Origin: a virus
Lineage: Duplodnaviria; Heunggongvirae; Uroviricota; Caudoviricetes
Length of the DNA: 19,870 nt
IMG/VR virus record: IMGVR_UViG_2579778899_000005
Strand: one strand, 5' to 3'
Shown here piece after piece: positions 356 through 15,888 of the stretch. Each line of letters starts with the position of its first letter. Positions within the stretch are counted from its first letter, which is position 1. The notes under the pieces were generated by a model that made no database searches, was not told where the DNA came from, and saw nothing but the letters and a program-made list of their open reading frames with translations. The position numbers and the translations under genes are program-made.

Positions 356-370
356 GCAGTGAGGTACAGC

Positions 371-649: not shown

Positions 650-698
650 TTGATAACGGTTGTTAACTGTTTCTGGTATCGTGGCAGCAGGAGGAAAC

Positions 699-947: not shown

Positions 948-953
948 AATAAT

Positions 954-985
954 AATGGCCTGGTATTTTCCAGGCCATTATTTTT
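954..985. terminator. Bidirectional rho-independent terminator between convergent genes
   Basis: Perfect 10 bp inverted repeat AATGGCCTGG (954-963) / CCAGGCCATT (970-979) with a 6 nt loop, followed by TTTTT 981-985 and preceded by an A-rich run on the other strand. Lies between the stops of the + gene (947) and the - gene (984). Confidence 0.65.
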
Positions 986-1457: not shown

Positions 1458-1574
1458 AGTTCGTTCCTCCTGATTGACGAGCAGAAAATGTACGGAACAG
1501 CTTATTTATTTTTTCAGGTTTTGTAAATTATTTGTTCGTGGTTGTTCCAGGTTGTTCGGTGATTCTGGCTGATG

Positions 1575-1633
1575 TTTACATACTGATTTTTATGTATATG
1601 TTGGCGTGTGGCACTCAGACGTGAGCCGCCACA
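1575..1633 (+). promoter_or_regulatory. Candidate sigma70 promoter plus inverted-repeat operator or 5' hairpin upstream of the capsid operon
   Basis: TTTACA 1575-1580, 16 bp spacer, TATGTT 1597-1602, then inverted repeat TGTGGC (1607-1612) - N15 - GCCACA (1628-1633). Pattern-based only. Confidence 0.3.
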
Positions 1634-1648
1634 ATGCCGCCTGACCCC

Positions 1649-1683
1649 CTGCGCGATGCCGGGTTGATCTGCGAGATGCCGGG
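1649..1683 (+). repeat. Two 15 bp direct repeats CTGCG(C/A)GATGCCGGG spaced 20 bp apart
   Basis: Copies at 1649-1663 and 1669-1683 differ at one position. They sit about 70-100 bp upstream of the capsid start codon, suggesting a phased protein-binding site. Confidence 0.5.
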
Positions 1684-1751
1684 AGTGTCGGGCGGCGCTC
1701 CCTCCGTGTTGGTTTCACGTCCTGAATCTTAACCAATACGAGAAAACCTTC

Positions 1752-2897
1752 ATGAAGAAATTAATCGAACTCCGCCAGCAAAAAACCGCCCTGAAAAACC
1801 AGATGCGATCCCTGCTGGAAAAAGCCGACAGTGAAAACCGCAGCCTGAACGATGACGAAGGCAAACAGTTTGATGAACTGCGTGCAAAAGCCGATTCCCT
1901 CGACACAGAAATCTCCCGTCTTGAAGCTGTTGCGGATGAAGAACGTAACCAGCCAGGTGTTTCCGTCGAAGAGAAAATTACCAAAGACGAACTGCGCTCT
2001 TACATTCTGACCGGGGAAACCCGCAACCTGTCCGGCAGTGTCCCGGCTGATGGTGGTTATACGGTTATCCCGGAACTGAACAGAGAAATTATGCGTCAGC
2101 TTTCTGATGAATCGGTGATGCGTAAAATCTGTACCGTTAAAACCATTCACAGCAATGAATTTAAGCAACTGGTTTCTGCCGGGGGCGCGGTCGTTGAACA
2201 CGGCGAAGAAGGTGCGGCACGTAACCAGACGGCAACACCAAAACTGAATGAAGTCAGTATCCGCCTGTATCCGATCTACGCTTACCCGAAAACCACTCAG
2301 GAAATTATCGATTTTTCCGAAGTCGATATTATGGGCTGGTTATCTTCTGAAATTGGCGACACTTTCGTTGATACCGAAGAAACGGATCTGGTTTCCGGTG
2401 ATGGCGAGAAAAAAGCTAAAGGTTTCCTGGCTTTTCCGCGCACTGCGGATAACGACAAAACCCGTCCTTTCGGTACGCTCCAGACGAAAAAAGTTACTGG
2501 CAGTCTCAGCGCCGACATGCTGATTGACCTGAAATTTACGCTGCGCAATAAGTACCGCAAAAAAGCTGTATGGGTGATGAACTCAAATACAGCCGCCTCC
2601 GCACAAAAACTGAAAAATGCCACTGGTGATTACATCTGGCGCGATCGTTTACAGGCTGGTGATCCTGATTCTCTGCTGGGGCTTCCGGTTGAATATCTGG
2701 AATTTATGCCGGACGGTGTGATTGCAGTAGGTGACTTTAAGCGCGGTTATTTCATCGTTGACCATGAAACCGGTACGCGTACCCGTCCGGATTTCAGCGA
2801 ACCTGGATTCATTAACATCTATACCCAGAAATATCTGGGCGGTGGTGTGGTGGATTCGAACGCCATCAAGATTCTGGAAATTCAGGCTGGCAAGTAA
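1752..2897 (+). CDS. Major capsid protein, HK97 family, with N-terminal coiled-coil delta (scaffold) domain
   Basis: 381 aa. N-terminal ~100 aa is a charged coiled coil. C-terminal part carries HK97-fold motifs (KGFLAFP, GDFKRGYFIVD, GGGVVDSNAIKILEI). No separate scaffold gene. Confidence 0.9.
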   Translation: MKKLIELRQQKTALKNQMRSLLEKADSENRSLNDDEGKQFDELRAKADSLDTEISRLEAVADEERNQPGVSVEEKITKDELRSYILTGETRNLSGSVPADGGYTVIPELNREIMRQLSDESVMRKICTVKTIHSNEFKQLVSAGGAVVEHGEEGAARNQTATPKLNEVSIRLYPIYAYPKTTQEIIDFSEVDIMGWLSSEIGDTFVDTEETDLVSGDGEKKAKGFLAFPRTADNDKTRPFGTLQTKKVTGSLSADMLIDLKFTLRNKYRKKAVWVMNSNTAASAQKLKNATGDYIWRDRLQAGDPDSLLGLPVEYLEFMPDGVIAVGDFKRGYFIVDHETGTRTRPDFSEPGFINIYTQKYLGGGVVDSNAIKILEIQAGK

Positions 2898-2902
2898 TGA
2901 GC

Positions 2903-2927
2903 AAAGGGGGCTTCGGCCTCCTTTTTC
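2903..2927 (+). terminator. Rho-independent terminator or attenuator directly after the capsid gene
   Basis: GGGGGC (2906-2911), TTCG tetraloop, GCCTCC (2916-2921; one G-U pair), then TTTTT 2922-2926. Begins 6 nt after the capsid stop. Confidence 0.55.
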
Positions 2928-2946
2928 AGCTTTATGGAGTACACCG

Positions 2947-3507
2947 ATGAAAAATACCGATTTTGAAATCCGTACATCTGAACTGACCGCCTGCGATAAA
3001 AAACTGGTGGGTTATGCCGTTCGCTGGAACAGCCTTTCAGAAATTATCTGGGACGAATTCCGCGAACAGTTCACGCCGGGGGCTTTTGCTGACTATCTGG
3101 CGGCGGGTAATGATGTGCGCTGCCTGTATGAGCATGACTATACCCGACTGCTGGGGCGCACCAAATCCGGAACACTGGTACTGACTGAGGACAACACCGG
3201 GCTACGTTTTGAACTGACACCGCCTGATACCCAGCTTGGAAAAGATGTGCTTACGCTGGTGGAGCGTGGCGACATTACAGGAATGAGCTTTGGCTTTCGC
3301 GCATTATGCGAAGAGTGGAATATCGCGCAAAAACCGTATCTGCGCACTGTTACCGCCGCAGAACTTCGTGAAATCACGATAACGTCAATGCCTGCTTATC
3401 CCGAATCTGGCGTGGAGATTGCCCATCGTTCGTTGTTTGCACAGCACCCTGAATTACGCCCGGCAGGAAATAATCGTCATCGCTGGGCTGAACTGGCGGG
3501 GTTGTGA
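2947..3507 (+). CDS. Prohead maturation protease, HK97 (S78) family
   Basis: ATG 2947 with GGAG 2936-2939 at 7 nt spacing. Motifs GYAVRWN and GMSFGF are typical of HK97-family prohead proteases. Stop TGA 3505-3507. Confidence 0.85.
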   Translation: MKNTDFEIRTSELTACDKKLVGYAVRWNSLSEIIWDEFREQFTPGAFADYLAAGNDVRCLYEHDYTRLLGRTKSGTLVLTEDNTGLRFELTPPDTQLGKDVLTLVERGDITGMSFGFRALCEEWNIAQKPYLRTVTAAELREITITSMPAYPESGVEIAHRSLFAQHPELRPAGNNRHRWAELAGL

Positions 3508-3508
3508 T

Positions 3509-4723
3509 ATGTGGTGGCCTTTTAGTCGTAAAAAAAGCGATCTGCGTAACCTGTCCATTGATGATTTTCTGGCGCTGTCCGGCGTACCGAATACCGGATC
3601 CGGAGAATATGTTTCTGCCGGGACGGCTGAATCATTGCCTGCTGTGATGAACGCGGTTTCTGTCATCGCTGAGGCGGTGGCCACGATGCCGTGTTATCTG
3701 TATCTGGTACGCAATGACAAGGGCAGGGAGGCGCGGGAATGGCTGGACAGTCACCCGGTCGATATTCTGCTGAATGAGCAGCCTAATTCGTGCCAGACAC
3801 CTTACCAGTTTAAACGCACAATGATGCGTCACTGCCTGCTGAACGGTAACGCCTATGCGGTTATTGAGTGGGGGCGGGACGGTCAGCCAAAATCACTTCA
3901 TCCTTATGCGCCGGGGTGTGTTGTACCGGAACGCACTGGCGCACACAAATACCGCTATACCATCACCGAACCCTATACAGGAACGGTGCGCACGTATTTA
4001 CAGGAAGAAGTTCTGCATCTCCGCTATGCCTCGGATGATGGCTTTCTGGGGCGCTCCCCCGTCACGATTTGCCGTGAGGCGCTGGGGCTTGGCCTTGCTC
4101 AACAGCGTCACGGAGCCAGCATTATGAAAGATGGCATGATGGCGGCAGGGATTATCACGTCAGGCGAATGGCTGGACGGCGTAAAAGGTAAACAGGCATT
4201 AGACGCCCTGGAACGCTACAAGGGGGCGAAAAATGCCGGAAAAACGCCAATCCTTGAAGGGGGCATGGATTACAAGCAACTGGGGATGAGTAACCAGGAT
4301 GCGGAATGGCTGGCCTCCCGTCGCTTCTCCATTGAAGACATCGCCCGGATGTTCAACGTGTCGCCTATTTTTCTGCAGGAATACAGCAACAGCACCTACA
4401 GCAATTTCAGTGAGGCAAGCCGCGCGTTTCTGACCATGACAATGCGTCCGTGGCTGGCGAACTTCGAACAGCAAATCAAGGCCGCTTTGCTGGTGGCTTC
4501 TCCCGTACCTGGTACCCGTTATCTGGTTGAGTTTGATTCAGCCGATTTATTACGCGCCACCCCTACCGAACGTTACGCCACGTATGAGAAAGGGATTAAG
4601 AACGGGATCATGAATCCGAACGAAGCCCGCGAACGTGAGGGGATGCCGCCGCGTGAAGGTGGCGACGAATTCAGCCAGGCATGGAAGCAGACGGTGGAAA
4701 TTAAAGGTGAAAAAGATGAGTGA
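3509..4723 (+). CDS. Portal protein, HK97 family
   Basis: ATG 3509 lies 1 nt after the protease stop. 404 aa protein with the same overall pattern as the second portal in this window (NGNAYAV..., MDYKQLGMSNQDAEWLASRRFSIEDIARMFNVSP). Stop TGA 4721-4723. Confidence 0.9.
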   Translation: MWWPFSRKKSDLRNLSIDDFLALSGVPNTGSGEYVSAGTAESLPAVMNAVSVIAEAVATMPCYLYLVRNDKGREAREWLDSHPVDILLNEQPNSCQTPYQFKRTMMRHCLLNGNAYAVIEWGRDGQPKSLHPYAPGCVVPERTGAHKYRYTITEPYTGTVRTYLQEEVLHLRYASDDGFLGRSPVTICREALGLGLAQQRHGASIMKDGMMAAGIITSGEWLDGVKGKQALDALERYKGAKNAGKTPILEGGMDYKQLGMSNQDAEWLASRRFSIEDIARMFNVSPIFLQEYSNSTYSNFSEASRAFLTMTMRPWLANFEQQIKAALLVASPVPGTRYLVEFDSADLLRATPTERYATYEKGIKNGIMNPNEAREREGMPPREGGDEFSQAWKQTVEIKGEKDE

Positions 4724-5015
4724 AGAAAAAATTACACCTGATGAAGTCAGGGCACATCTTCGCCTTGATGACTTTTCCGGAGAAGGCGAACTTCTGAAAA
4801 TGTATACCGATGCGGCGCTGGAAGCCTGCCAGAAGCACATCGGGAAACGTTTTGAAGACGGTCTGGAATTTACCCCGGCAATGCGTGTTGGTTGCCTGAT
4901 GTACATCGCTTTTCTGTATGAGAACAGGGAAGCGGTTTCACCTGTGGAGCAGTCGGAACTGCCTATGGCTATTTCTGCGCTCTGGTCAGTTTATCGTGAT
5001 GTGGGGGTGTATTGA
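4716..5015 (+). CDS. Head-tail connector, gp6-like
   Basis: ATG 4716 overlaps the portal stop (ATGAGTGA) with AGGTG upstream. 99 aa, similar in size and pattern to the gp6-like protein at 12997-13302. Confidence 0.7.
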   Translation: MSEEKITPDEVRAHLRLDDFSGEGELLKMYTDAALEACQKHIGKRFEDGLEFTPAMRVGCLMYIAFLYENREAVSPVEQSELPMAISALWSVYRDVGVY

Positions 5016-5455
5016 TGCCGTGGCAACCATTAAGGCGTTGTACTGAACCGGGCTGTAATAAGCGTGTGAAGTCAGGCAAGTGTGAAGAGCACAGGCGGGC
5101 TGCATGGCGTGCAGAGGATGCCAGACGGGGACACCGCCGCGCGCGTGGGTATTCCCGACAGTGGGACAAATACCGCGCCCTGTATCTGAGCAAAAACCCG
5201 TTATGCGTGCGTTGTCTGGCTAAAGGTATTTATACGCCAGCTCTTGTGGTGGATCACATCATTCCCATCAATGGCGGCGGTGATGTTCTCTTCTGGCCTG
5301 AGTGGAATCACCAGGCATTGTGCCAGACGTGCCACAACCGTAAGACGACACGGGAAGATCCAGCCACGAAAGCGAACCGTAAGGCGGGCATGTATCGCGA
5401 GCAGGAAGAACGGGCGGCACATCGTAACGACTGGATGTATGGCGATGATGACTGA
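5015..5455 (+). CDS. HNH endonuclease (terminase-associated)
   Basis: ATG 5015 overlaps the upstream stop (TGATG). Cys-rich N-terminus and HNH core (VDHIIPINGGGD...WNHQALCQTCHNRKT). HNH genes adjacent to terS/terL are typical of cos-type HK97-like packaging modules. Confidence 0.85.
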   Translation: MPWQPLRRCTEPGCNKRVKSGKCEEHRRAAWRAEDARRGHRRARGYSRQWDKYRALYLSKNPLCVRCLAKGIYTPALVVDHIIPINGGGDVLFWPEWNHQALCQTCHNRKTTREDPATKANRKAGMYREQEERAAHRNDWMYGDDD

Positions 5456-5624
5456 ACAGGAGCAAAACAGGCTGATACGTGGACTGATAAGGCAGCGTGA
5501 CACATGGAAGGCACAGGAGACAGGGCACAAAGCCAACAGGACAGGGCGCACAGAACGCACCACAGCGAAGCGATTAACCGACCGTGACCGCGAGGTCATG
5601 GAATGTTTTCGCAATCGCTGGTGA
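5439..5624 (+). CDS. Possible small basic protein (61 aa); coding status uncertain
   Basis: ATG 5439 overlaps the HNH 3' end in another frame, stop TGA 5622-5624. Arg/Lys-rich, no clear RBS. May be non-coding sequence within a packaging-site region. Confidence 0.25.
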   Translation: MAMMTEQEQNRLIRGLIRQRDTWKAQETGHKANRTGRTERTTAKRLTDRDREVMECFRNRW

Positions 5625-5743
5625 GGCCGTCAGAGGGGGTGGGGGAGGTTTTCAGGACAAAACCGTCCCTGCCGGACACCGACCGCCTCCTCAAATTTTT
5701 GTGCACGGGAATTTTTTTGAAAATAATTGGGCGAAAAAAGAAC

Positions 5744-6100
5744 ATGGCAAGACCACCAAAAGCCCCCGCTTACCTGGATGAAATTGCGGTCAGGCAATGG
5801 AAGGAAAAATCGCGCCAGCTTTCCGTGCGGGAAGACCTTACCCCCGCCGACTGGAGCAATCTGGAGCTGTATTGCGTTAACTACTCCATATACCGCAAAG
5901 CCGTCGAAGACCTTGCGACGCGCGGGTTCAGCATTGTTAACAGTCAGGGCAGCGAGAGCAGAAACCCCGCCCTGAGCGCAAAGGCTGACGCAGAAAGAAT
6001 AATGATCAAAATGGCTTCTTTGCTGGGTTTTGACCCGGTAAGCCGCCGCAGAAATCCACCGGAAACAGAGGAAGAGGACGAGCTTGACCGCCTGGCATGA
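5744..6100 (+). CDS. Terminase small subunit, P27-family-like
   Basis: 118 aa beginning MARPPKAPAYLDEIAVRQWKE..., with the size and N-terminal pattern of P27-family TerS. Positioned between HNH and TerL. No strong SD before ATG 5744. Confidence 0.75.
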   Translation: MARPPKAPAYLDEIAVRQWKEKSRQLSVREDLTPADWSNLELYCVNYSIYRKAVEDLATRGFSIVNSQGSESRNPALSAKADAERIMIKMASLLGFDPVSRRRNPPETEEEDELDRLA

Positions 6101-7745
6101 GTACGCAGAAGGCGTAAAAAACGGCAAAATTACGGCCTGTAAACGACTGAAACAGGCCGTTAAACGGTATTTTTCTGACCTTGAAAACCCCCTTTACACG
6201 TTCGATCCGGAGGTCGTGGAGCGGTTTATTGCCTTTTCCAGGGTGTGTCCGCACGTAAAAGGCGCAATGCGCGGTAGCCCCATTGAGCTGGAGCCGTGGC
6301 AGCAGTTCGCCTTTGCCTGCATCCTGGGCTTTAAGGTTAAGGCCACCGGACGGCGCAAATACACCAGCGCATTCATTGAAGTACCGCGAAAAAATGCCAA
6401 ATCCACGGTCGCCGCTATCCTGGCTAACTGGTTTCTGGTTATGGAAAACGGGCAGCAGGATATTTACACCGCCGCCGTGAGTCGTGATCAGGCGCGGATC
6501 GTGTTTGATGATGCGCGTCAGATGTGCCTTTTATCCCGACCGTTACGAAAGCGGGTAAATATTCAGGCACACAAGGTGATACACCCGAAAACCAACAGCC
6601 TGTTAAAGCCACTGGCAGCAAAAGCGGCAACCATTGAGGGGACAAACCCGAGTCTCGCCATTGTGGATGAATATCACCTGCACCCTGACAACGGGGTTTA
6701 TTCCGCGCTTGAACTGGGAATGGGGGCGCGTCCGGAGGGGTTATTATTTGCCATCACCACATCGGGGAGCAACGTTGTTTCAGCCTGTAAACAACACTAC
6801 GACTATTGCTGCCAGATACTGGATGGTGAAGAGGTGAACGAATCCATGTTCGTGCTTATTTACGAGCTGGATGATGAAAGCGAGGTTGACGATCCGGCGA
6901 TGTGGATAAAGGCGAATCCCAATATCGATGTTTCCGTCGATCGTGAAAAACTGGCCTCAACCATCCAGAAAGCGCGGGGTATTCCGTCGCAGTGGGTGGA
7001 AATGCTCACCAAGCGATTCAATATCTGGTGTCAGGGGGCTACGCCGTGGATGGGTAACGGTGCATGGGCGGAGTGCGCCGGAACGTTCGCGGAGGCGGAT
7101 TTATACGGGCAGGAGTGCTACGCGGGGCTGGACTTATCATCAACTAGCGATATTTCCAGCGTGTGCTATGCCTTTCCGGTCGGTAAAAAGATTATGCTGG
7201 TTTCCCGTCACTATCTGCCGGAATTTCAGCTACAGAACCCCGCCAATAAAAACCGCGCCATCTATCGCCAGTGGGTAAAGGCGGGCTGGATACGCACAAC
7301 ACCGGGTGACTGCATTGATTATGACCGTATCCGTGATGACATCATGGCGGATGCAGAGAATTTCAATATCAGGCTGGTGGGCTTCGATACATGGAACGCC
7401 ACGCACCTGAGGACGCAGCTACAGGGGGCAGGATTTGAGGTGGAGCCGTTCCCGCAAACATACCTTCGTTTCAGTCCGGCGGCGAAATCGTTCGAAGTTT
7501 TTGTTAACCGGAAGGTGATTGTGCATCGTGGCGATCCGGTGCTGGCCTGGTCAATGAGTAATGTTGTGATGCAGAGTGACGCGAACGCCAATATCAAGCC
7601 GAACAAGAAAAAATCATCCAACAAGATAGACCCGAGCGTTGCGGCGCTGATGGCGTTTGGCACATTCCAGGCAGAGCATGAGGAATTTGCATTTGATATG
7701 AGCGACAGCCACAAAGAGCGGCTTGCGGCGTTTGATGGGGTATGA
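6084..7745 (+). CDS. Terminase large subunit (ATPase plus nuclease domains)
   Basis: 553 aa. Start taken as TTG 6084 (AGAGGA 6073-6078 upstream), overlapping the terS end; start codon choice is uncertain. The C-terminal half aligns by eye with the truncated terminase fragment at 8737-9462. Confidence 0.9.
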   Translation: MTAWHEYAEGVKNGKITACKRLKQAVKRYFSDLENPLYTFDPEVVERFIAFSRVCPHVKGAMRGSPIELEPWQQFAFACILGFKVKATGRRKYTSAFIEVPRKNAKSTVAAILANWFLVMENGQQDIYTAAVSRDQARIVFDDARQMCLLSRPLRKRVNIQAHKVIHPKTNSLLKPLAAKAATIEGTNPSLAIVDEYHLHPDNGVYSALELGMGARPEGLLFAITTSGSNVVSACKQHYDYCCQILDGEEVNESMFVLIYELDDESEVDDPAMWIKANPNIDVSVDREKLASTIQKARGIPSQWVEMLTKRFNIWCQGATPWMGNGAWAECAGTFAEADLYGQECYAGLDLSSTSDISSVCYAFPVGKKIMLVSRHYLPEFQLQNPANKNRAIYRQWVKAGWIRTTPGDCIDYDRIRDDIMADAENFNIRLVGFDTWNATHLRTQLQGAGFEVEPFPQTYLRFSPAAKSFEVFVNRKVIVHRGDPVLAWSMSNVVMQSDANANIKPNKKKSSNKIDPSVAALMAFGTFQAEHEEFAFDMSDSHKERLAAFDGV

Positions 7746-8035
7746 CGAGAATGAGCGAAACCGAACTACTAAAAATAATCCGCCGCGTTACCGGAATCAG
7801 CCAGGAAGCAGGCAAACAGGAGGCCACGCAGCCGGACAGCGTGATAGCCGAAAATTACGCGCGTGTGGTGGCTGAGGTGATGCGCCGTGACGGTATCGAG
7901 CTTAACGGCGTGGATATACGCAATATACGCACCAGAGTTCTGGAGTTGTTGTCATATCGTCGCCGCGTGGAGATGTACCAGGAGAAAGAAAAAATTACTT
8001 ACCACTGGAAGAAGCCGGAGCGGTTACGACGTTAA
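7742..8035 (+). CDS. Hypothetical protein (94-97 aa), translationally coupled to terL
   Basis: ATG 7742 overlaps the terL stop (ATGA); alternative ATG at 7751. Stop TAA 8033-8035. No recognisable family. Immediately followed by a phased repeat array. Confidence 0.5.
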   Translation: MTRMSETELLKIIRRVTGISQEAGKQEATQPDSVIAENYARVVAEVMRRDGIELNGVDIRNIRTRVLELLSYRRRVEMYQEKEKITYHWKKPERLRR

Positions 8036-8041
8036 CTTGTG

Positions 8042-8090
8042 GTGACATACCGTGACGGAGAGTGACAACCAGTGACACACAGTGACAAAA
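8042..8090 (+). repeat. Five tandem GTGAC(A) motifs at exact 10 bp periodicity
   Basis: GTGAC at 8042, 8052, 8062, 8072 and 8082 (GGTGACATAC CGTGACGGAG AGTGACAACC AGTGACACAC AGTGACAAAA). One copy per helical turn, starting 7 nt after the stop of ORF 7742-8035. Confidence 0.75.
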
Positions 8091-8108
8091 AGACGGTATT
8101 TAAATAGA

Positions 8109-8137
8109 GTGGGTGTTTAATACCCCCCGTTTTTTTT
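8109..8137 (+). terminator. Possible weak terminator (short imperfect stem plus T8 run)
   Basis: GGGT (8111-8114) can pair with ACCC (8122-8125), followed by C-rich bases and TTTTTTTT 8130-8137. The stem is weak, so this is tentative. Confidence 0.35.
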
Positions 8138-8289
8138 CGTGTGGTGCATGGTCAAAATGACCACGGAGAAGATACGCACCGAAGCAGAACAATTACCGTA
8201 GGTTAAAGCGACAGTATTCACACCAGCAACCTGATTATCAATTTTCAGCCGTTCGGTGGCATCACTGGCCCCATTTTCCTGATGGGGTT

Positions 8290-8442
8290 GCGGGTTATTT
8301 GGGGGGTATTTGCGGGTTATTTTGAATGTCTCGCGGGTTACGCTTTGGCTAATATTCAAACGCATCATTTTTTAACGCATTGATATTAAAGAATAAAAAA
8401 TACTTAGCAAGCGAAGATAACCCGCTAACCCGCATAACCCGC
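8290..8442. repeat. Iteron-like repeat clusters: 3x GCGGGTTA(T) at ~22 bp spacing, an AT-rich core, then 3x inverted TAACCCGC in tandem
   Basis: Direct copies start at 8290, 8312 and 8333, with a degenerate GGGGGTATTT copy at 8301-8311. Reverse-complement copies at 8418-8425, 8426-8433 and 8435-8442. They flank a ~75 bp AT-rich segment (8343-8417). A 12 bp GTATATATATAC palindrome follows at 8451-8462. Confidence 0.75.
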
Positions 8443-8629
8443 ACTGTTTTGTATATATATACGAAAAATTGCATTCAGGGGGGTGATCGAAATTTCTACT
8501 GCCTCTTATCTCTTTGAGTGCTCACCTCGTCAGATTGTTACACACAAGAAATAAAAAATGCTTCGCGATGGTAGGTCGAATCACTGTATCAAAAAACGGT
8601 GTGTATCAGCATTAAAACAATACAGATAC

Positions 8630-8650
8630 GTGTATTGCGCTGTGTATTGC
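8630..8650 (+). repeat. Tandem GTGTATTGC repeat (2 copies, 12 bp apart)
   Basis: Copies at 8630-8638 and 8642-8650, with a related GTGTATC at 8601-8607, in AT-rich non-coding DNA. Confidence 0.6.
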
Positions 8651-8736
8651 TTGATGATTTATAAAGACTGTTTTTTCATGTTAAACGATTGATATACAGG
8701 TGATTTTAAAAAACTTGAAATATTCTTACCAAACAC

Positions 8737-9462
8737 ATGAATGTGTGGGTAACAGCAGAGTCTGCCTGGATGGACATGATTAAGTGGGAGAAGTGCGAAT
8801 ACATTGCCCCACGACATGAGCTGAAAACGTATCCCATGTGGGTCGGCGTTGACCTTGCTCATAAGATTGATATCTGTGCGGCGGCAAAACTCTGGCGAAC
8901 GGATAACGGGCATGTTCATGCCGATTTTAAATTCTGGCTTCCGGAAGGACGGCTGGAACGATGCTCGCGGCAGCAGGCAGAACTTTACCGGAAGTGGGCG
9001 GAGATGGATAAGCTGATTCTGACGGATGGTGATGTTATCGATCATGCTCAGATAAAAAGTGACTTACTGGAATGGATTGGTGGTGAAAACCTCAGGGAAC
9101 TGGGATTTGACCCGTGGAGCGCGATGCAGTTCAGCCTGGCACTGGCTGAAGAAGGGATACCGCTGGTGGAGGTTCCGCAGACGGTTCGCAATCTGTCAGA
9201 GGCCATGAAGGAAACGGAATCACTGGTCTATGCCGGGCGTTTCCATCACAGCAATCATCCGGTCATGAACTGGATGATGTCTAACGTTACGGTAAAACCG
9301 GACAAAAACGACAATATCTTCCCGAATAAATCCACGCTGGAAGCCAAAATCGACGGCCCTGTTGCGATGTTTACAGCAATGAGCCGGATGCTGGTCAATG
9401 GTGGTGAACCGGAGCTGGATCTGTCTGAACATCTGGTCAGCGTGGGCATCCGCTCGCTTTAA
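8737..9462 (+). pseudogene. Terminase large subunit remnant: C-terminal nuclease half only, N-terminal ATPase domain absent
   Basis: The 241 aa ORF aligns by eye with the C-terminal ~240 aa of the intact TerL at 6084-7745 (NVWVTAESAWM vs NIWCQGATPWM; VGVDLAHKID vs AGLDLSSTSD). An in-frame stop at 8716-8718 and a lack of SD upstream indicate truncation near 8720-8740. Confidence 0.7.
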
Positions 9463-9473
9463 CCGAGGTCATT

Positions 9474-9656
9474 ATGTTTCTGATAATTCTCGCGCCACTG
9501 GTGGGCGTGCTGGGTGCGCTTTTGCTGGCGTATGGTGCCTGGCTGATTTATCCCCCGGCGGGTTTTGTTGTTGCCGGGGTGCTGTGCCTGTTCTGGTCGT
9601 GGCTGGTGGCGCGATATCTCGACCGTACACAGCCGTCTGTCGGCGGAGGTAAATAG
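9474..9656 (+). CDS. Small hydrophobic protein (60 aa, two predicted transmembrane helices)
   Basis: ATG 9474 with GAGGT 9465-9469. Sequence is dominated by two hydrophobic stretches ([25 protein letters not shown] and [20 protein letters not shown]). Stop TAG 9654-9656 overlaps the portal GTG start. Confidence 0.45.
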
Positions 9657-10897
9657 TGTTCTTTTCGGGATTATTTCAACGAAAAAGTGACGCGCCGGTG
9701 ACCACACCAGCAGAGCTGGCGGATGCCATCGGGTTGTCTTACGACACCTATACCGGAAAGCAGATCAGCAGTCAGCGGGCCATGCGACTGACGGCGGTTT
9801 TTTCCTGCGTCAGAGTGCTGGCAGAGTCGGTCGGGATGTTGCCCTGCAATCTGTATCACCTGAACGGCAGCCTGAAACAGAGGGCCACCGGCGAACGTCT
9901 GCATAAGCTGATCTCCACGCATCCCAATGGCTATATGACGCCGCAGGAGTTCTGGGAGCTGGTGGTCACCTGTCTGTGCCTGAGGGGAAACTTTTACGCC
10001 TACAAAGTGAAAGCATTTGGCGAAGTGGCTGAACTGCTGCCCGTCGATCCCGGTTGTGTGGTACCGAAGCTTAACAGTCGCTGGGAGCCGGTCTATCAGG
10101 TCACATTCCCGGACGGTTCCACGGATGTACTGAGCCAGGAAGATATCTGGCATGTGCGCACGTTGACGCTGGACGGTCTGGTGGGACTGAATCCCATCGC
10201 CTATGCCCGCGAGGCAATATCGCTGGCAGCAGCGACCGAAGAGCACGGGGCCAGACTGTTCAGCAATGGTGCGGTGACGTCCGGTGTGTTGCGTACAGAA
10301 CAGACGCTGTCGGATCAGGCTTATGAGCGCCTGAAGAAAGATTTTGAGGAGCGTCACACCGGGCTTGGCAATGCTCACCGCCCGATGATCCTTGAGATGG
10401 GGCTGGACTGGAAGTCGATGGCGCTGAACGCCGAGGACAGCCAGTTCCTGGAAACCCGCAAGTTTCAGCTTGAAGAAATCTGTCGTCTGTTCCGGGTGCC
10501 GTTGCACATGGTGCAGAACACCGATCGCGCCACCTTCAACAATATCGAAGAGCTGGGGCTGGGATTTATCAACTATTCACTGGTGCCGTATCTGACCCGC
10601 ATCGAACAGCGGATCAACACCGGACTGGTACGAAAAAGTAAGCAGGGCGTTTATTACGCCAAATTTAACGCCGGGGCGTTACTGCGCGGGGATATGAAGT
10701 CCCGTTTTGAAGCCTACGCCACCGGGATCAACTGGGGAATTTACTCTCCCAATGACTGCCGCGACCTGGAAGATATGAATCCGCGTCCCGGTGGGGATGT
10801 CTATCTCACACCGATGAACATGACCACGAAACCCTCCGATGGCAGTAAAGCCGGTAAGCAGAAGGATAACGCCAATGCAGACGAAACAACGTCTTGA
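9656..10897 (+). CDS. Portal protein, HK97 family (second copy)
   Basis: GTG 9656 with GGAGG 9645-9649 at 6 nt spacing. 413 aa with portal pattern (RGNFYAYKV, LDWKSMALNAEDSQFLETRKFQLEEICRLFRVP), paralogous to the portal at 3509-4723. Confidence 0.9.
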   Translation: MFFSGLFQRKSDAPVTTPAELADAIGLSYDTYTGKQISSQRAMRLTAVFSCVRVLAESVGMLPCNLYHLNGSLKQRATGERLHKLISTHPNGYMTPQEFWELVVTCLCLRGNFYAYKVKAFGEVAELLPVDPGCVVPKLNSRWEPVYQVTFPDGSTDVLSQEDIWHVRTLTLDGLVGLNPIAYAREAISLAAATEEHGARLFSNGAVTSGVLRTEQTLSDQAYERLKKDFEERHTGLGNAHRPMILEMGLDWKSMALNAEDSQFLETRKFQLEEICRLFRVPLHMVQNTDRATFNNIEELGLGFINYSLVPYLTRIEQRINTGLVRKSKQGVYYAKFNAGALLRGDMKSRFEAYATGINWGIYSPNDCRDLEDMNPRPGGDVYLTPMNMTTKPSDGSKAGKQKDNANADETTS

Positions 10898-11525
10898 TGT
10901 ACCGCTGAGTCTGAAATCTGTCAGTGACTCCGGTGAGTTTGAAGGGTATGGCTCCGTCTTTGGTGTAAAGGACAGCCACGATGATGTGGTGATGTCCGGG
11001 GCATTTGCTGCTTCCCTGCGGGCGTGGAGTGACAGAAAAGCGTTACCTGCGCTGCTCTGGCAGCACCGCATGGATGAACCCATCGGTGTTTACACCGAAA
11101 TGAAGGAAGACGATGTCGGGCTTTACGTCAGGGGACGGTTGCTTATTGATGATGATCCCCTTGCAAAACGCGCACATGCACACATGAAGGCCGGTTCGTT
11201 AACCGGCCTTTCTATTGGGTACGTCCTGAAAGACTGGGAATACGACCGGAGCAAAGAAGCCTTTCTGCTGAAAGAAATCGACCTCTGGGAAGTCAGCCTG
11301 GTGACGTTCCCGTCTAACGACGAGGCGCGGATCAGCGACGTCAAGAACGCACTGGCCCGCGGGGAAATCCCCGAACAGAAAAAAATCGAAAGAGTCCTGC
11401 GTGATGTCGGACTCTCCCGTACCCAGGCCAAAGCATTCATGGCCGGGGGCTATGGCGCACTGTCCCTGCGCGACGCTGAGGATGTGGGCTCTGCACTGAA
11501 TGCACTGAAAAATCTGAACTTCTAA
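10875..11525 (+). CDS. Prohead maturation protease, HK97 (S78) family (second copy)
   Basis: Preferred start ATG 10875 (GAAGGA 10861-10866 upstream); an alternative ATG at 10839 has no SD. Motifs GYGSVFGV and LSIGY. Overlaps the portal 3' end. Stop TAA 11523-11525. Confidence 0.8.
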   Translation: MQTKQRLDVPLSLKSVSDSGEFEGYGSVFGVKDSHDDVVMSGAFAASLRAWSDRKALPALLWQHRMDEPIGVYTEMKEDDVGLYVRGRLLIDDDPLAKRAHAHMKAGSLTGLSIGYVLKDWEYDRSKEAFLLKEIDLWEVSLVTFPSNDEARISDVKNALARGEIPEQKKIERVLRDVGLSRTQAKAFMAGGYGALSLRDAEDVGSALNALKNLNF

Positions 11526-11539
11526 TCAGGAGAAATACG

Positions 11540-12745
11540 ATGGCGGTTGATATTAAAGATGTCGAACAGGTCGCGCAGGAGCTGCAGCAGAAGTTTGACG
11601 ACTTCAAAGCAAAGAACGACAAGCGCGTGGATGCGATTGAGCAGGAAAAAGGCAAACTTGCCGGGCAGGTGGAAACCCTGAACGGGAAACTCAGCGAGCT
11701 GGAAAACCTCAAAAGCGATCTTGAAAAAGAGCTGCTTGAGCTGAAACGTCCGGCAGGTGGTGCGCAAAATAAACTGGCCACCGAGCATAAAGAAGCGTTT
11801 GTGGGCTTCCTGCGTAAAGGCCGTGAAGATGGTCTGCGCGATCTGGAGCGCAAGGCATTACAGGTGGGCACCGATGAAGACGGCGGCTATGCCGTGCCGG
11901 AAGCACTGGATCGCAACATTCTCACCCTGCTGAAAGATGAAGTGGTGATGCGCCAGGAAGCCACGGTGATCACCGTTGGTGGTTCCGACTACAAAAAACT
12001 GGTGAATCTGGGCGGCACGGCTTCCGGATGGGTTGGCGAGACTGACGCGCGCTCCCAGACTGCCACCTCCAGACTGGGCCTGATTGAACCTTTCATGGGG
12101 GAAATCTACGGTAACCCGCAGGCCACCCAGAAAATGCTGGATGATGCCTTTTTCAACGTGGAAGCATGGATCAACAGCGAGCTGGCAACCGAATTTGCCG
12201 AACAGGAAGAAATTGCCTTTACCACCGGCGATGGTACCAAGAAGCCGAAAGGGTTCCTGGCGTATGAGTCCACGGATGAAACCGACAAGGTCCGGGCGTT
12301 CGGCAAACTTCAGCATATTGTATCCGGCGAAGCGACGGCGGTGACCGCAGATGCCATTATCAAACTGATTTACACGCTGCGAAAGGCACACCGCACTGGC
12401 GCGAAGTTCATGATGAACAACAACAGCCTGTTTGCCATCCGTCTGCTGAAAGACACCGAGGGTAACTATCTGTGGCGTCCGGGGCTGGAACTGGGGCAGC
12501 CGTCCTCTCTGGCGGGTTACGGTATCGCTGAAAACGAACAGATGCCGGATATTGCCGCTGATGCGAAAGCCATTGCATTTGGTAACTTCAAACGGGGTTA
12601 CACCATCGTTGACCGTATCGGTACCCGCATTCTGCGTGACCCGTACACCAATAAACCGTTTGTCGGTTTTTATACCACCAAGCGCACCGGCGGCATGCTG
12701 GTCGATTCGCAGGCCATCAAACTGCTGAAGATTGCAGCGGCGTAA
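11540..12745 (+). CDS. Major capsid protein, HK97 family with delta domain (second copy)
   Basis: ATG 11540 with AGGAG 11528-11532. 401 aa with N-terminal coiled coil and HK97-fold motifs (KGFLAYE, GNFKRGYTIVD, GGMLVDSQAIKLLKI). Paralogous to, but diverged from, the capsid at 1752-2897. Confidence 0.9.
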   Translation: MAVDIKDVEQVAQELQQKFDDFKAKNDKRVDAIEQEKGKLAGQVETLNGKLSELENLKSDLEKELLELKRPAGGAQNKLATEHKEAFVGFLRKGREDGLRDLERKALQVGTDEDGGYAVPEALDRNILTLLKDEVVMRQEATVITVGGSDYKKLVNLGGTASGWVGETDARSQTATSRLGLIEPFMGEIYGNPQATQKMLDDAFFNVEAWINSELATEFAEQEEIAFTTGDGTKKPKGFLAYESTDETDKVRAFGKLQHIVSGEATAVTADAIIKLIYTLRKAHRTGAKFMMNNNSLFAIRLLKDTEGNYLWRPGLELGQPSSLAGYGIAENEQMPDIAADAKAIAFGNFKRGYTIVDRIGTRILRDPYTNKPFVGFYTTKRTGGMLVDSQAIKLLKIAAA

Positions 12746-12996: not shown

Positions 12997-13302
12997 ATGA
13001 TGCCCACTCTGGAAGAGCTTCGTGTTCAGTGCCGGATTGATGATGACAATGAACAGGAGAATTCTCTTCTTATGATGTATCTGGCTGCTGCTAGGGAAGA
13101 GGCTGAAAAGTTTTTAAACCGGACGCTTTACGATGAAACTGTTTCTGAGCAGGATACGACCGGGATTGTAATAACACCTCTGATAAAACTGCGTCTTATG
13201 CAACTGGTTGGCTACTGGTACGAGAACAGGGAAATGCAGGATGCAGTGCCTGATTTTTTCTATACCGGACTGCGGATGTATCGATTTCATCCCGGAACAT
13301 AG
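12997..13302 (+). CDS. Head-tail connector, gp6-like
   Basis: ATG 12997 with AGAGG upstream. 101 aa with size, position and pattern of gp6-like connectors (compare 4716-5015). Confidence 0.7.
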   Translation: MMPTLEELRVQCRIDDDNEQENSLLMMYLAAAREEAEKFLNRTLYDETVSEQDTTGIVITPLIKLRLMQLVGYWYENREMQDAVPDFFYTGLRMYRFHPGT

Positions 13303-13310: not shown

Positions 13311-13649
13311 ATGCAGGCAGGAAGATTACGTGATCGTGTGGTTATTCTGAATGCCACCACCGTTCGGTCTCCGTCAGGGCACCCTGTGGAAACAATGACG
13401 GAGGGGGCAACCATATGGGCAGAAGTTAAGGGGATCAGTGGCAGGGAGAGAATATCCGGAGGCGCAGAAACTGCTCAGGCTACAGTGAGGGTCTGGATGA
13501 GATTCCGGCGAGATGTAACTGCAACTTCATGTCTGAAAGTGCTGACTGGTGCATTCAAAGGCGCGATTCTGAGTATAGACGGTCCGCCGATACCGGATGC
13601 TCGTGCCACACGGCTTGAGATACTCTGTTCTCAGAAGGGGAATGTGTGA
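13311..13649 (+). CDS. Head closure / head-tail joining protein
   Basis: ATG 13311 with AGGAGG 13301-13306. N-terminus MQAGRLRDRVVILN is typical of phage head-tail joining proteins. 112 aa. Confidence 0.7.
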   Translation: MQAGRLRDRVVILNATTVRSPSGHPVETMTEGATIWAEVKGISGRERISGGAETAQATVRVWMRFRRDVTATSCLKVLTGAFKGAILSIDGPPIPDARATRLEILCSQKGNV

Positions 13650-14095
13650 TGGATTTCAGTCTTGATTTTTCAGGTCTGGCGGATATTGCACGGGATCTGG
13701 AGACGCTCAGCAGGGCAGAAAACAATAAGGTACTGCGCGATGCCACCCGTGCCGGTGCTGAAGTTATGCGGGATGCAGTTGTTGAACGTGCGCCGGAGCG
13801 AACCGGGAAACTGAAGAAAAATGTGGTTGTTCTCACTCAGCGTTCAAAGCGTCGGGGGGAAATTATCTCGGGTGTCCACATTCGTGGACGGAACCTGCGA
13901 ACCGGAAACAGTGATAACAGCATGAAAGCCAGTGATCCCCGAAATGCGTTTTACTGGCGCTTTGTGGAGCTGGGAACGATAAACATGCCCGCGCATCCGT
14001 TCATTCGCCCAGCTTTCGATACGACAGAGGAACTGGCAGCACAGATTGCCATACAGCGAATGAATCAGGCTATTGATGAGGTCTTAAGTAAATGA
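13649..14095 (+). CDS. HK97 gp10-family tail/neck component
   Basis: ATG 13649 overlaps the upstream stop (GTGATG). 148 aa with the pattern of HK97 gp10-family proteins (...RDATRAGAEVMRDAVVERAPERTGKL...). Confidence 0.65.
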   Translation: MDFSLDFSGLADIARDLETLSRAENNKVLRDATRAGAEVMRDAVVERAPERTGKLKKNVVVLTQRSKRRGEIISGVHIRGRNLRTGNSDNSMKASDPRNAFYWRFVELGTINMPAHPFIRPAFDTTEELAAQIAIQRMNQAIDEVLSK

Positions 14096-14436
14096 GAGAG
14101 ACCACACTGTATTCCCTGCTGTCTCAACTGGCCGGAGGACAGGTTTATCCTTATGTGGTCCCGCTGACGGAGGGAAAGCCTGCGGTATCTCCGCCATGGC
14201 TGGTATTTTCTGTGGTGTCTGACACTGCGTCTGATGTGCTTGATGGTCAGGCTGAATCCAGAATTACCGTGCAGATCGATGTCTGGGCAACAGTACCTGA
14301 TGACGCAGATGATATCCGTGAGCAGGCGCTTGATGCGGTAAGGCAACTTGCACCTTCCGTTATTTCTAAAACTCAGGGTTATGATCCTGATTCCCGTCTG
14401 AGCAGATCCACGCTTGAATTTCAGGTAATAGCCTGA
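14092..14436 (+). CDS. Tail completion/terminator-like protein (DUF3168-like)
   Basis: ATG 14092 overlaps the upstream stop (ATGA). 114 aa with motifs VYPYVVP and RITVQIDVWA. Occupies the usual tail-completion position before the major tail gene. Confidence 0.55.
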   Translation: MRETTLYSLLSQLAGGQVYPYVVPLTEGKPAVSPPWLVFSVVSDTASDVLDGQAESRITVQIDVWATVPDDADDIREQALDAVRQLAPSVISKTQGYDPDSRLSRSTLEFQVIA

Positions 14437-14456
14437 GGTCGTTAATGATTTTACCC

Positions 14457-14480
14457 ACCCGCCGCTGGCGGGTTTTTTAT
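14457..14480 (+). terminator. Rho-independent terminator between the neck genes and the major tail gene
   Basis: ACCCGCC (14457-14463), loop GCT, GGCGGGT (14467-14473), then TTTTTT 14473-14478. The major tail RBS (CAGGAGA 14484-14490) and ATG 14496 follow. Confidence 0.55.
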
Positions 14481-14495
14481 TTTCAGGAGACGAGT

Positions 14496-15200
14496 ATGTC
14501 CTCTAATTTTGAGCGTTCGCAACTGACGAAAATTATGATTTCGTCTGCACCGGTAACAGCAGAAACCCTGGATTCTGCCAGCTATCTTGGCCTGAGCTGT
14601 ACAATCAAAGAGGTGCAGTTTACCGCAGGACAAAAGCAGGATATTGATGTCACCACGCTGTGTTCTGTTGAGCAGGAAAATATTAACGGCCTTGGTGCCG
14701 CGTCAGAGATTTCCATGTCAGGCAACTTTTACCTCAATGCTGCCCAGAACGCGTTGCGCAGTGCCTATGACAATGACACCACGTATGGCTTTAAAGTTAT
14801 TTTTCCGTCAGGCAACGGATTTACCTTTATGGCAGAGGTGCGTCAGCATACCTGGTCTGCAGGAACTAATGGTGTTGTGGCTGCAACGTTTTCCCTGCGC
14901 CTGAAAGGTAAACCTGTGCTGACGACAGAGCCGCTGAAAGTGAAGGTCGATTTAAACAGCACGCTGCAGGTTTCTGCCGGAGCGAAACTCGAAATGGTGG
15001 TTGAGGCTGCCGGTGGTGTGCCGCCTTATTCTTATGTCTGGAAGAAAGGTAGTTCTCCTGTTTCCGGACAGACGGCGGCAACATTCAGTAAGGCATCAGC
15101 AGCATCAGGTGATGCCGGTGCGTATACCTGCGAGATTTCTGATTCAGCAAGCCCTGTTAACAAGGTGACCTCCACTTCCTGCACTGTTACCGTCAGTTAA
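14496..15200 (+). CDS. Major tail (tube) protein with C-terminal Ig-like domain
   Basis: ATG 14496 with GGAGA upstream. 234 aa. The C-terminal ~80 aa has Ig-like features (alternating beta pattern, GAYTCEISD motif), as in lambda gpV-type proteins. Stop TAA 15198-15200. Confidence 0.75.
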   Translation: MSSNFERSQLTKIMISSAPVTAETLDSASYLGLSCTIKEVQFTAGQKQDIDVTTLCSVEQENINGLGAASEISMSGNFYLNAAQNALRSAYDNDTTYGFKVIFPSGNGFTFMAEVRQHTWSAGTNGVVAATFSLRLKGKPVLTTEPLKVKVDLNSTLQVSAGAKLEMVVEAAGGVPPYSYVWKKGSSPVSGQTAATFSKASAASGDAGAYTCEISDSASPVNKVTSTSCTVTVS

Positions 15201-15586
15201 TGAGGATAGATGTGATGACTAAAAATATCCGCAATCTGGCACTGGCAACGATGTCGGGGTTTCGCCATAAAACTGTTGATGTGCCTGAATGGGAAGGGGC
15301 AACGGTTGTATTACGGGAACCTTCTGCAGAAGCCTGGTTGCGCTGGCAGGAGATCGTTAAAGCAAAAGATGATGAGACACCGTTATCCGTTGCGGAGCGC
15401 GCCCGCCGAAATCTGGAGGCAGATGTTGAACTGTTCATTGATGTTCTGTGTGATACCGGACTGCAACCTGTATTTTCAGAGGATGATCGTGAACAGGTGA
15501 TTGCCGTGTATGGCCCGGTGCATGCGCGGCTTCTTCGGCAGTCTCTGGAACTGATCAGTGATGCCGGCGAGGTTAAAAAAAAGTAG
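15200..15586 (+). CDS. Tail assembly chaperone, G-like (zero-frame product)
   Basis: ATG 15200 overlaps the major tail stop (TAATG). 128 aa ending EVKKK-stop. Lies immediately upstream of the tape measure gene and ends in a slippery A-run. Confidence 0.75.
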   Translation: MRIDVMTKNIRNLALATMSGFRHKTVDVPEWEGATVVLREPSAEAWLRWQEIVKAKDDETPLSVAERARRNLEADVELFIDVLCDTGLQPVFSEDDREQVIAVYGPVHARLLRQSLELISDAGEVKKK

Positions 15587-15888
15587 AGCTTCCGGGGATG
15601 CGTTTTCTGATGATGCTGGCGCTCAGGATGGGGCGCACATTGTCAGAGTTACGCCGGGAAATGTCCGCATCAGAAATCATGATGTGGGCAGAATTTGACA
15701 GGTTCAGCCCGCTGGGTGACGAGCGGGCTGATATCCGGGCTGCCCAGATAGTTTCTGCGGTTTACGGTGCGCAGGGTGTCAAAGTCCCACTGAATGATGC
15801 GCTTCTTCAGTGGGAACAAGAGCAGACAGAAGGCGTCTCAGATCCATTTGCCGGACTGGAAAACGCGCTTTTAATAGTGTCTCAGTGA
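15200..15888 (+). CDS. Tail assembly chaperone G-T fusion, predicted via -1 programmed frameshift
   Basis: The -1 frame is open from 15577 through the ATG at 15598 to TGA 15886-15888. A slip at A AAA AAG (15577-15583) would join G residues 1-127 to the T-frame ORF (...KK-VELPGMRFLMM...). Confidence 0.65.
15577..15583 (+). other. Slippery heptamer A AAA AAG for -1 ribosomal frameshifting
   Basis: Part of the A-run 15575-15582 plus G 15583. Zero-frame codons AAA AAG precede TAG 15584-15586. The -1 frame has a stop at 15574-15576 and is open immediately after it. Confidence 0.65.

Follow-up and report, generated by a model that had tools for sequence, protein, structure and literature searches.

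A split terL in an Escherichia coli prophage as the probable integration site of a capsid-forming satellite

Satellites housed in prophage late genes

Helper-embedded PICIs (HE-PICIs) are satellites that lie inside the late genes of prophages and point in the same direction as these genes; 14 such sites have been described, terL cognates among them (Tommasini, Mageeney & Williams 2023, NAR Genom Bioinform, PMC10111431). HE-PICI integrases make up a single clade of relatives of the 11capE integrase (PMC10111431). Among the rows of the supplementary table available for comparison, the site group A:Terminase_1:246 holds many 14-16 kb elements of E. coli with the att identity 'ttaccaa' and a variant 'tcacgaa' (PMC10111431). 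A doubled motif, tgTGTATTGCantgTGTATTGCa, is unique to the HE-PICI attP, its co-oriented copies lying 81 ± 2 bp upstream and 132 ± 2 bp downstream of the attP centre, and the elements are organised in zones in the order Integration (Int, AlpA), Bro, Replication and Late (PMC10111431). One HE-PICI, 11capE, which occupies capsid gene E of prophage 50icd (the composite being 61icd), has been induced experimentally: the composite was excised and replicated, the satellite was excised about an hour later, and no virions were detectable; 11capE has no terS and is presumed to use the cos machinery of its helper (PMC10111431). The same study refers in general terms to regulated gene integrity, or 'active lysogeny', in which a host gene is split by an element and restored on its excision (PMC10111431). 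The prototype of a second kind of satellite, the capsid-forming PICIs (cf-PICIs), is EcCIEDL933, which builds small capsids of its own, fills them with no DNA but its own and relies on its helper for tails alone (Alqurainy et al., bioRxiv 10.1101/2022.09.08.507074).

Our results support a model whereby the 19,870-nucleotide stretch of DNA analysed here (the window) very probably contains the right end of a 15.7-kb helper-embedded cf-PICI that entered the helper terL by recombination at a 7-bp core in codons 341-343. The short terminase ORF at 8737-9462 is, as read from its sequence, the 3' piece of an ordinary prophage terL that was cut by the site-specific insertion of this satellite.

The two parts of the prophage terL and their junctions

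The ORF at 8737-9462 encodes, on the plus strand, 241 residues whose sole Pfam domain is PF20441 (TerL_nuclease; E 9.4e-37, profile positions 64-283 of 286), with no match to an ATPase domain; the same search finds both PF03354 and PF20441 in the 553-residue TerL encoded further left at 6084-7745. In BLASTP the ORF matches the left TerL over residues 312-541 of the latter (29% identity over 231 residues, E 2e-29), so the by-eye alignment with its C-terminal nuclease half in the original prediction was not spurious. A much nearer match came from phage genomes, where tblastn identified the 241 residues as the C-terminal part of a 585-residue TerL of phage vB_EcoM-606R7 (99.6% identity), and a phage genome search also returned near copies of this terL in phi467, Evi and others. 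The ATG of the ORF corresponds to Met345, and the ORF thus encodes residues 345-585 with the nuclease domain, while homology to terL begins at 8719, 18 nt 5' of the ATG. The in-frame stop that had been placed just upstream is the TGA at 8716-8718, six codons 5' of the ATG. The N-terminal residues are indeed missing from the ORF; their number, put originally at about 310, is 344 when the ORF is measured against its own 585-residue homologue.

The 5' half of the gene lies outside the window and is known from a contig that is identical to the window over the comparable 10.6 kb and from related genomes. This contig, JAFCYT010000014.1 (GCA_016858965.1), matches window positions 1-10649 at 100.000% identity without a mismatch, window position 1 being its position 9631, and it reads in order HNH, TerS, terL nt 1-1028, Int, two AlpA genes, Bro-N, DUF4222, DUF927 primase, SSB, PerC and then the genes from capsid to TerL that the window also holds. 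The terL 5' part, TerS and HNH of the prophage are accordingly found 7-9 kb left of window position 1, past the integrase end of the island; in window coordinates, terL would begin near -8013 and its left junction would fall near -6992. E. coli PEC240, which is 97.4% identical to the window, carries the first 1,028 nt of terL about 15 kb upstream as an annotated C-terminally truncated pseudogene, directly preceded by HNH and a P27-family TerS and followed by a tyrosine integrase, two AlpA-like genes, Bro-N, a DUF927 primase and SSB; strains rl0044 and O177:H21 have the same layout. Likewise, nine of ten contexts of the PerC-family protein (window 371-649) show the island-in-terL arrangement with identical breakpoints.

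The ATPase half that the original prediction took to be absent is therefore encoded nearby, past the island, a case that the prediction itself had named as one that would refute it, and what was said about TerS and HNH holds inside the window only: the window shows no second TerS or HNH because its edge cuts off the left part of the prophage, where both are present in JAFCYT010000014.1. The ORF at 8737-9462 is not a TerL that joins ATPase and nuclease in a single polypeptide; its ATPase part is a separate fragment, 15.7 kb upstream in JAFCYT010000014.1. At attL this fragment continues into unrelated island sequence, reading 54 codons into the island to give a 397-residue, ATPase-only fusion ORF.

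Both pieces leave open reading frames, the nuclease ORF being intact and starting with ATG (Met345), and PGAP gives such fragments the name 'terminase TerL endonuclease subunit'. That the nuclease-only ORF and/or the 397-residue fusion should be expressed with a role of their own, either as a two-piece terminase or as a dominant-negative inhibitor of packaging, is nevertheless extremely unlikely. No Shine-Dalgarno-like sequence stands before the ATG (the upstream sequence is AACTTGAAATATTCTTACCAAACAC), 240 of the 241 residues are the same as in the matching part of the intact TerL, which gives no sign of independent evolution, and the break falls inside the Pfam nuclease model PF20441, at position 64 of 286. 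PGAP also marks both terL pieces as pseudogenes in related loci, including PEC240, rl0044 and O177:H21.

The breakpoint in the prophage terL coincides with an attachment site. TTACCAA (8726-8732) is the only block common to attL, attR and the uninterrupted gene (Table 1), and the break lies at the same nucleotides in all 12 occupied loci examined, each of which has attL with terL nt 1-1028. Two of the 12 carry the variant core TCACGAA, at attL and attR alike, and cores that match at both ends are the product expected of a tyrosine recombinase that requires identity in the overlap region. When the island is taken out in silico, all 12 loci give a 585-residue ORF that shares 567-585 of its 585 residues with the phage TerL (584 in JAFCYT010000014.1), and both terL halves are free of frameshifts and premature stops. 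Positions 1-2644 of JAFCYT010000014.1 have a 100.0% match in E. coli G749 that stops precisely on the final base of the core, which indicates the same prophage with an empty site. The attP brings no replacement sequence for the gene: the TGA abuts the region of homology, and resemblance beyond it is limited to N-I-L-T-K versus N-F-F-T-K.

The arms of the site carry the mark of HE-PICIs as well. In the window, copies of TGTATTGC at 8631 and 8643 form a doubled motif in the island-side arm of attR, and a second doubled copy, outside the window, is found in the attL arm of JAFCYT010000014.1 (2776/2788), PEC240 and rl0044. The distance from motif to core centre is 78-79 nt for the upstream copy, counted from its end, and 133-135 nt for the downstream copy; these values are close but not identical to the published 81 ± 2 and 132 ± 2, a difference that may lie in the choice of reference points. 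The doubled motif is absent from the two chromosomal cf-PICIs compared. Island and helper late genes are co-oriented, all on the plus strand in the window.

These junctions make it very unlikely that the right-hand block is a dead remnant, that is, a prophage from which deletion or decay has removed terS, HNH and the 5' part of terL and which serves at most as a tail donor to the adjacent satellite. The break falls exactly at a 7-bp integrase core adjoining the HE-PICI arm motif, the parts supposedly lost are present past the island in the window-identical contig and in 11 other loci, and the two intact halves rejoin to a 585-residue ORF that is 97-100% identical to the phage TerL. Such a reading could draw on the lack of an ATPase domain, TerS and HNH in the right block inside the window and on the fact that some helpers are degraded, as seen in the frameshifted helper integrase of O177:H21 and in the published remark that many HE-PICI helpers look truncated (PMC10111431). 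Together, the frameshift and the published cases suggest that some composites may be immobile.

The intact version of the right-hand terminase is also found elsewhere in the species. A 181-nt probe across attR, at a coverage of at least 80%, and an equivalent probe across the uninterrupted site with the same cut-off were applied to 5,426 complete E. coli genomes; the occupied junction was present in 35 and the empty site in 901. The best match to the window itself in this set of genomes was 98.4% identical. Thus, besides the 585-residue TerL of vB_EcoM-606R7, 901 E. coli genomes have the gene with its site empty, and about 4% of this terL type is occupied.

The island and its helper

The attL and attR cores are 15,718 bp apart in JAFCYT010000014.1 and 15.1-16.1 kb apart across the occupied loci, which puts the island at or slightly over the stated cf-PICI range of about 10-15 kb. 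Its gene content makes the island a capsid-forming PICI: it has capsid, protease, portal, connector and hnh-terS-terL in the order stated for proteobacterial cf-PICIs, and the stretch between the att cores is free of tail and lysis genes in JAFCYT010000014.1, PEC240 and rl0044. All four HE-PICI zones are present in JAFCYT010000014.1, with the window covering the island from SSB onward.

Sp7 of O157:H7 Sakai, which we take to be the Sakai counterpart of EcCIEDL933, encodes relatives of the head and packaging proteins of the island (identity 93% for TerL, 88% for TerS, 84% for HNH, 82% for portal, 75% for capsid, 62% for protease and 57% for connector). By analogy, given this protein identity of 57-93%, the island would make small capsids of its own, package its own DNA and take tails from the helper. 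No head-completion homologue was found in the island by tblastn, and the gp6-like connector is its sole head-tail joining component; a head-completion gene is present in Sp7 and in the O177:H21 island. SatelliteFinder allows for one or two missing core components in a cf-PICI. The last ORF of the island (97 residues) is 77% identical to the ORF that follows TerL in Sp7 and is missing from the rl0044 and O177:H21 islands. Beyond it lies a non-coding tail with repeat arrays, of which the GCGGGTTA array is kept in cf-PICIs with other integrases. No Rfam family reached its gathering score in the window, and neither Pfam nor PHROG gave a function for the 83-residue ORF at 8117-8368 on the minus strand or the 157-residue ORF at 984-1457.

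A look-up with the island capsid led to islands near comM/ilvG, near azlC/proV and inside the capsid gene of another island. The module from capsid to TerL is thus paired with different integrases at several chromosomal sites, so the integration module is exchangeable. The integrase of the present island, outside the window and known from relatives, is 99% conserved among terL-embedded islands and 39-42% identical to chromosomal cf-PICI integrases.

The helper is a lambdoid prophage with an HK97-type head. As originally predicted, the right block has portal, protease, capsid, neck and tail genes, which were called from Pfam and PHROG matches and from the PGAP annotation of the 97-98% identical PEC240 and rl0044 loci. 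In vB_EcoM-606R7 the order is HNH, TerS, TerL, a 60-residue protein, portal, protease, capsid, connectors and tail, and the window follows the same order from 8719 on. Upstream of the island, the O177:H21 helper has a repressor region, replication genes, Q, tRNAs, lysis genes, HNH and TerS. Relatives of the helper measure 38-41 kb. Island and helper differ widely in their head and packaging proteins, which are 20-41% identical (capsid 37%, portal 33%, TerL 29%, HNH 41%, TerS 27%).

The divergence between the two sets bears on the idea, also raised in the original prediction, of a functional chimera in which a satellite-type HNH-TerS-TerL replaced the packaging genes of the prophage and now serves the right-hand heads. 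This idea takes its appeal from the order HNH, TerS, TerL, (fragment), portal, protease, capsid and tail across the junction, which looks canonical; we regard that order as a coincidence, as the left genes belong to the satellite, and give the chimera next to no probability. Identity between the left packaging genes and those of the prophage is 27-41%, and between the two portals 33%; the left genes travel with a capsid, protease and portal of their own at several unrelated chromosomal sites and in Sp7; HNH, TerS and both terL halves are all still present in the prophage; and the junction is an att site and not a recombination scar. Of the other reading proposed at the outset, a packaging-defective remnant acting as donor beside a satellite, the satellite beside a prophage head-tail module stands, and the remnant gives way to a helper whose terL halves are intact and meet the island at an att site.

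Table 1. Features of the satellite, its helper and their junctions; positions refer to the window unless the contig is named.
Feature	Position	Strand	Detail
Right-hand 8.7 kb of the 15.7-kb island	1-8725	+	left 7 kb (integrase, AlpA x2, Bro-N, DUF927 primase) outside the window
SSB, 3' part	8-355	+	PHROG phrog_44; Pfam SSB on the JAFCYT010000014.1 gene
PerC-family regulator	371-649	+	PHROG transcriptional-activator family; Pfam PerC on the JAFCYT010000014.1 gene
Island major capsid	1752-2897	+	Pfam PF05065
Island prohead protease (S78)	2947-3507	+	Pfam PF04586
Island portal	3509-4723	+	Pfam PF04860
Island gp6-like connector	4716-5015	+	Pfam PF05135; portal ORF overlaps
Island HNH	5015-5455	+	Pfam PF01844
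Island TerS	5744-6100 (or 5603-6100)	+	Pfam PF05119
Island TerL, full-length	6084-7745	+	Pfam PF03354+PF20441
Last island ORF, 97 aa	7742-8035	+	phrog_1561 (no function assigned)
Non-coding island tail with repeat arrays	8042-8442	+	
Five GTGAC	8042-8086		10-nt spacing
Terminator-like hairpin and T-run	8111-8135		
Second terminator-like site	8266-8299		
Three direct GCGGGTTA	8290-8340		facing three TAACCCGC at 8418-8442
Doubled arm motif cgTGTATTGCgctgTGTATTGCt	8629-8651	+	island-side arm of attR
3' part of helper terL	8719-9462	+	nt 1015-1758 of 1758, 99.06% to vB_EcoM-606R7 (blastn)
attR crossover core TTACCAA	8726-8732	+	terL codons 341-343
YmfR-like 60-aa membrane protein	9474-9656	+	
Helper portal	9656-10897	+	
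Helper protease	10875-11525	+	
Helper capsid	11540-12745	+	
Helper connector	12997-13302	+	
Helper head completion	13311-13649	+	
Helper gp10-like	13646-14095	+	
Helper gp17-like	14092-14436	+	
Helper tail tube	14445-15200	+	
Helper chaperones	15200-15888	+	
Helper tape measure	15928-19161	+	
Prophage HNH	JAFCYT010000014.1 637-987		
Prophage TerS	JAFCYT010000014.1 1135-1617		
terL nt 1-1028	JAFCYT010000014.1 1617-2644		includes ATPase domain
Island integrase	JAFCYT010000014.1 2816-4024		
attB (uninterrupted terL)			...GTGAATTTTTTTACCAAACACATG...
attL (left junction)			...GTGAATTTTTTTACCAAGAAAGTAAC...
attR (right junction)			...CTTGAAATATTCTTACCAAACACATG...
Predicted island attP junction after excision			...GAAATATTCTTACCAAGAAAGTAAC...
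Predicted restored terL junction after excision			...AATTTTTTTACCAAACACATG...

Proposed dynamics and comparison with described elements

Three features of the locus shape our model of how satellite and helper might behave together: the split of terL means that a full TerL cannot be encoded as long as the island stays integrated; the island, the helper HNH-terS-terL 5' fragment and the helper portal-to-tail genes are co-oriented; and the packaging set of the island is complete, with its own HNH-TerS-TerL. The dynamics themselves are modelled on HE-PICIs, on the induction of 11capE (PMC10111431) and on cf-PICI biology. A helper with the embedded island would be unable to make TerL. On SOS induction, the whole composite would excise and replicate, and late transcription, antiterminated by Q, would extend from the lysis genes across HNH, terS and the 5' fragment of terL, enter the island and go on to the helper portal-to-tail genes; the two terminator-like sites in the non-coding tail of the island could limit read-through unless the polymerase is Q-modified. 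Int and AlpA of the island would then excise it, restoring terL in those genome copies, and helper packaging would be delayed until this excision. Island DNA would be packaged by the island HNH-TerS-TerL into small island capsids that are completed with helper tails, the present variant of the island probably also needing the head-completion protein of the helper. A helper of 38-41 kb with a 15.7-kb island makes a composite of about 56 kb, which should not fit the helper head; Tommasini et al. also argue that a composite is too large for the head of its helper (PMC10111431).

A stronger version of this model holds that the insertion in terL is an active packaging lock, that the island, a cf-PICI variant without a head-completion gene, is more helper-dependent than the prototype, and that the 397- and 241-residue TerL fragments, expressed late, poison or titrate the helper terminase or portal. 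We consider this version very unlikely. If it were true, the composite would release mainly satellite particles with helper tails, and the supposedly commensal lifestyle of a cf-PICI would have turned into interference that acts in cis.

For the annotation of prophages, the locus shows that a truncated terminase beside a duplicated head module should be taken for a nested mobile element instead of a decayed prophage. Loci of this kind will be misjudged by satellite finders and in calls of prophage completeness, as de Sousa et al. say. As a discovery the locus adds little: its site group, core and arm motif have been in print since 2023, with dozens of examples from E. coli (PMC10111431). Its remaining value lies in the dynamics of terL-embedded cf-PICIs, and no excision, transcription or particle data for any terL-embedded island were found in the searchable literature. 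With about 4% occupancy, E. coli offers a natural system for asking how a satellite with its own capsid and terminase gains by disabling the terminase of its helper.

Sequence comparison places the insertion closest to the HE-PICI group A:Terminase_1:246, of which it is a further instance, here carried by a cf-PICI and of a kind already known since 2023. The published A_Terminase_1_246 attR alignment corresponds almost base for base to window positions 8676-8830, and the attL alignment to PEC240 and JAFCYT010000014.1. Shared are the target, the cognate of lambda A (terL), the core with its variant, the flanks and the doubled TGTATTGC motif, and also the size of 14-16 kb, the host species and the co-orientation with the late operon. 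We see no structural difference, apart from the absence from the present island of a head-completion gene that some sister islands carry. GCA_016858965.1 was not found among the rows of the PMC10111431 table that were available for comparison.

Resemblance to cf-PICIs extends over the capsid, protease, portal, connector and hnh-terS-terL genes after int/alpA/primase/SSB/PerC and over the lack of tail and lysis genes. The integrase of the island is only 42% identical to that of Sp7, whose site is chromosomal, between roxA and phoQ, whereas the present island sits inside a prophage late gene. We rejected a location of Sp7 inside prophage Sp6, from which it is separated by potAB, pepT and roxA, and Asadulghani et al. 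reported no terminase disruption by Sp7. EcCIEDL933 is reported to be harmless to its helper, whereas the present insertion necessarily inactivates the helper terL while integrated. As in 11capE, the insertion is integrase-mediated and co-oriented in a helper late gene, with no replacement sequence in attP, but the target is terL instead of capsid gene E, and the present island brings its own HNH-TerS-TerL. Finally, the locus can be set beside active-lysogeny elements, examples of which are the comK prophage of Listeria and skin of B. subtilis. It shares with them that a gene is reversibly interrupted through site-specific integration, with no replacement sequence, and differs from them in that the gene being split is part of a second mobile element, the helper phage, and in that the switch presumably serves the satellite and not the cell.

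Repeat arrays in the island tail

The 3+3 array of GCGGGTTA and TAACCCGC in the tail of the island is kept with unchanged spacing in L004 and L006, two related cf-PICIs at chromosomal sites with unrelated integrases, and is also kept in the terL-embedded islands of rl0044 (L009) and O177:H21 (L021), while it was not found in Sp7, the cf-PICI-like element of O157:H7 Sakai. Its retention in cf-PICIs with unrelated integrases and in other terL-embedded islands shows that the array is part of the island's packaging/late module and not of the att arm; we regard it as a candidate cos or origin-like element. The GTGAC(A) array co-occurs with the 97-aa ORF variant, being present in L006 and absent from L009 and L021, and could be a protein-binding array, e.g. 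a TerS/cos-related or regulatory site.

Repeat elements and small ORFs of the island and its helpers
Feature	Location	Strand	Remarks
157-aa ORF	window 984-1457	-	no Pfam/PHROG match
GTGAC(A) array	window 8042-8091		five units, exact 10-nt spacing; directly 3' of last island ORF (7742-8035)
Terminator-like hairpin and T-run	window 8111-8135		after GTGAC(A) array
83-aa ORF	window 8117-8368	-	no Pfam/PHROG match
Three direct GCGGGTTA	part of window 8290-8442		22- and 21-nt spacing
Three inverted TAACCCGC	part of window 8290-8442		8- and 9-nt spacing; opposite GCGGGTTA copies across AT-rich centre
60-aa ORF, YmfR-like small membrane protein	window 9474-9656		phrog_502; between terL and portal
GNAT acetyltransferase moron	L021 19699-20184; L014 1-184	-	between helper lysis genes and HNH

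Accessory and small ORFs

Apart from the 83-aa and 157-aa ORFs, the island is uniformly plus-strand. Gene calling picks up both of these minus-strand ORFs in several related contigs, and they could be accessory or defence cargo. On the helper side, the GNAT acetyltransferase moron occurs in the helper of the type found in O177:H21 and in L014 (contig JAFCYT010000014.1); the helpers of PEC240 and rl0044 lack it. In PEC240 the counterpart of the 60-aa ORF carries the annotation ymfR, a name taken from the e14 element of K-12, and in a phage record it is annotated as "head-tail joining protein W".

Related islands at other sites and gene calls across attL

The island integrase of L003 (GCA_047262065.1) is of the terL type and 99% identical to that of PEC240 (L001); its island sits not in terL but within the capsid gene of a comM-site cf-PICI (1262-1290), with the junction ...AATAAGTACCGCAAGAAAGTAAC..., a secondary site similar to TTACCAA. 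The outer island appears to lack its 3' remainder, and the arrangement in L003 is one satellite nested within another or a recombinant that arose from such nesting. In L011 (GCA_958331005.1, position 2683), an island of the same family, with TTACCAAGAAAGTAAC as its attL-type sequence, occupies a chromosomal site and splits an Asp-Al_Ex family transporter gene; this insertion is probably off-target, like those that Tommasini et al. (2023; PMC10111431) list for group A:Terminase_1:246.

Reading through attL gives an ORF of 397 aa in L001 and L014, and in L019 (1255-3678) gene calling joins the terL 5' fragment and the island integrase into a single 807-aa ORF; in L021 (22629-24041), the called integrase ORF is stretched upstream across the att site. 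The same "terminase/int fusion" annotation problem was flagged by Tommasini et al. (PMC10111431).

Head completion

Between the island portal and connector ORFs, which overlap at window 4716-4723, the head-completion (PF05521) gene is absent. The helper head-completion protein (gene 13311-13649) is 50-63% identical to the versions of Sp7 and the O177:H21 island, whereas other island-helper pairs of head proteins are far more distant (20-41% identity). The absence of an island gene together with this similarity suggests that the island variant borrows the helper head-completion protein in addition to tails. The Sakai Sp7 and O177:H21 islands have a head-completion gene of their own, whereas the island in the window represents a variant without it.
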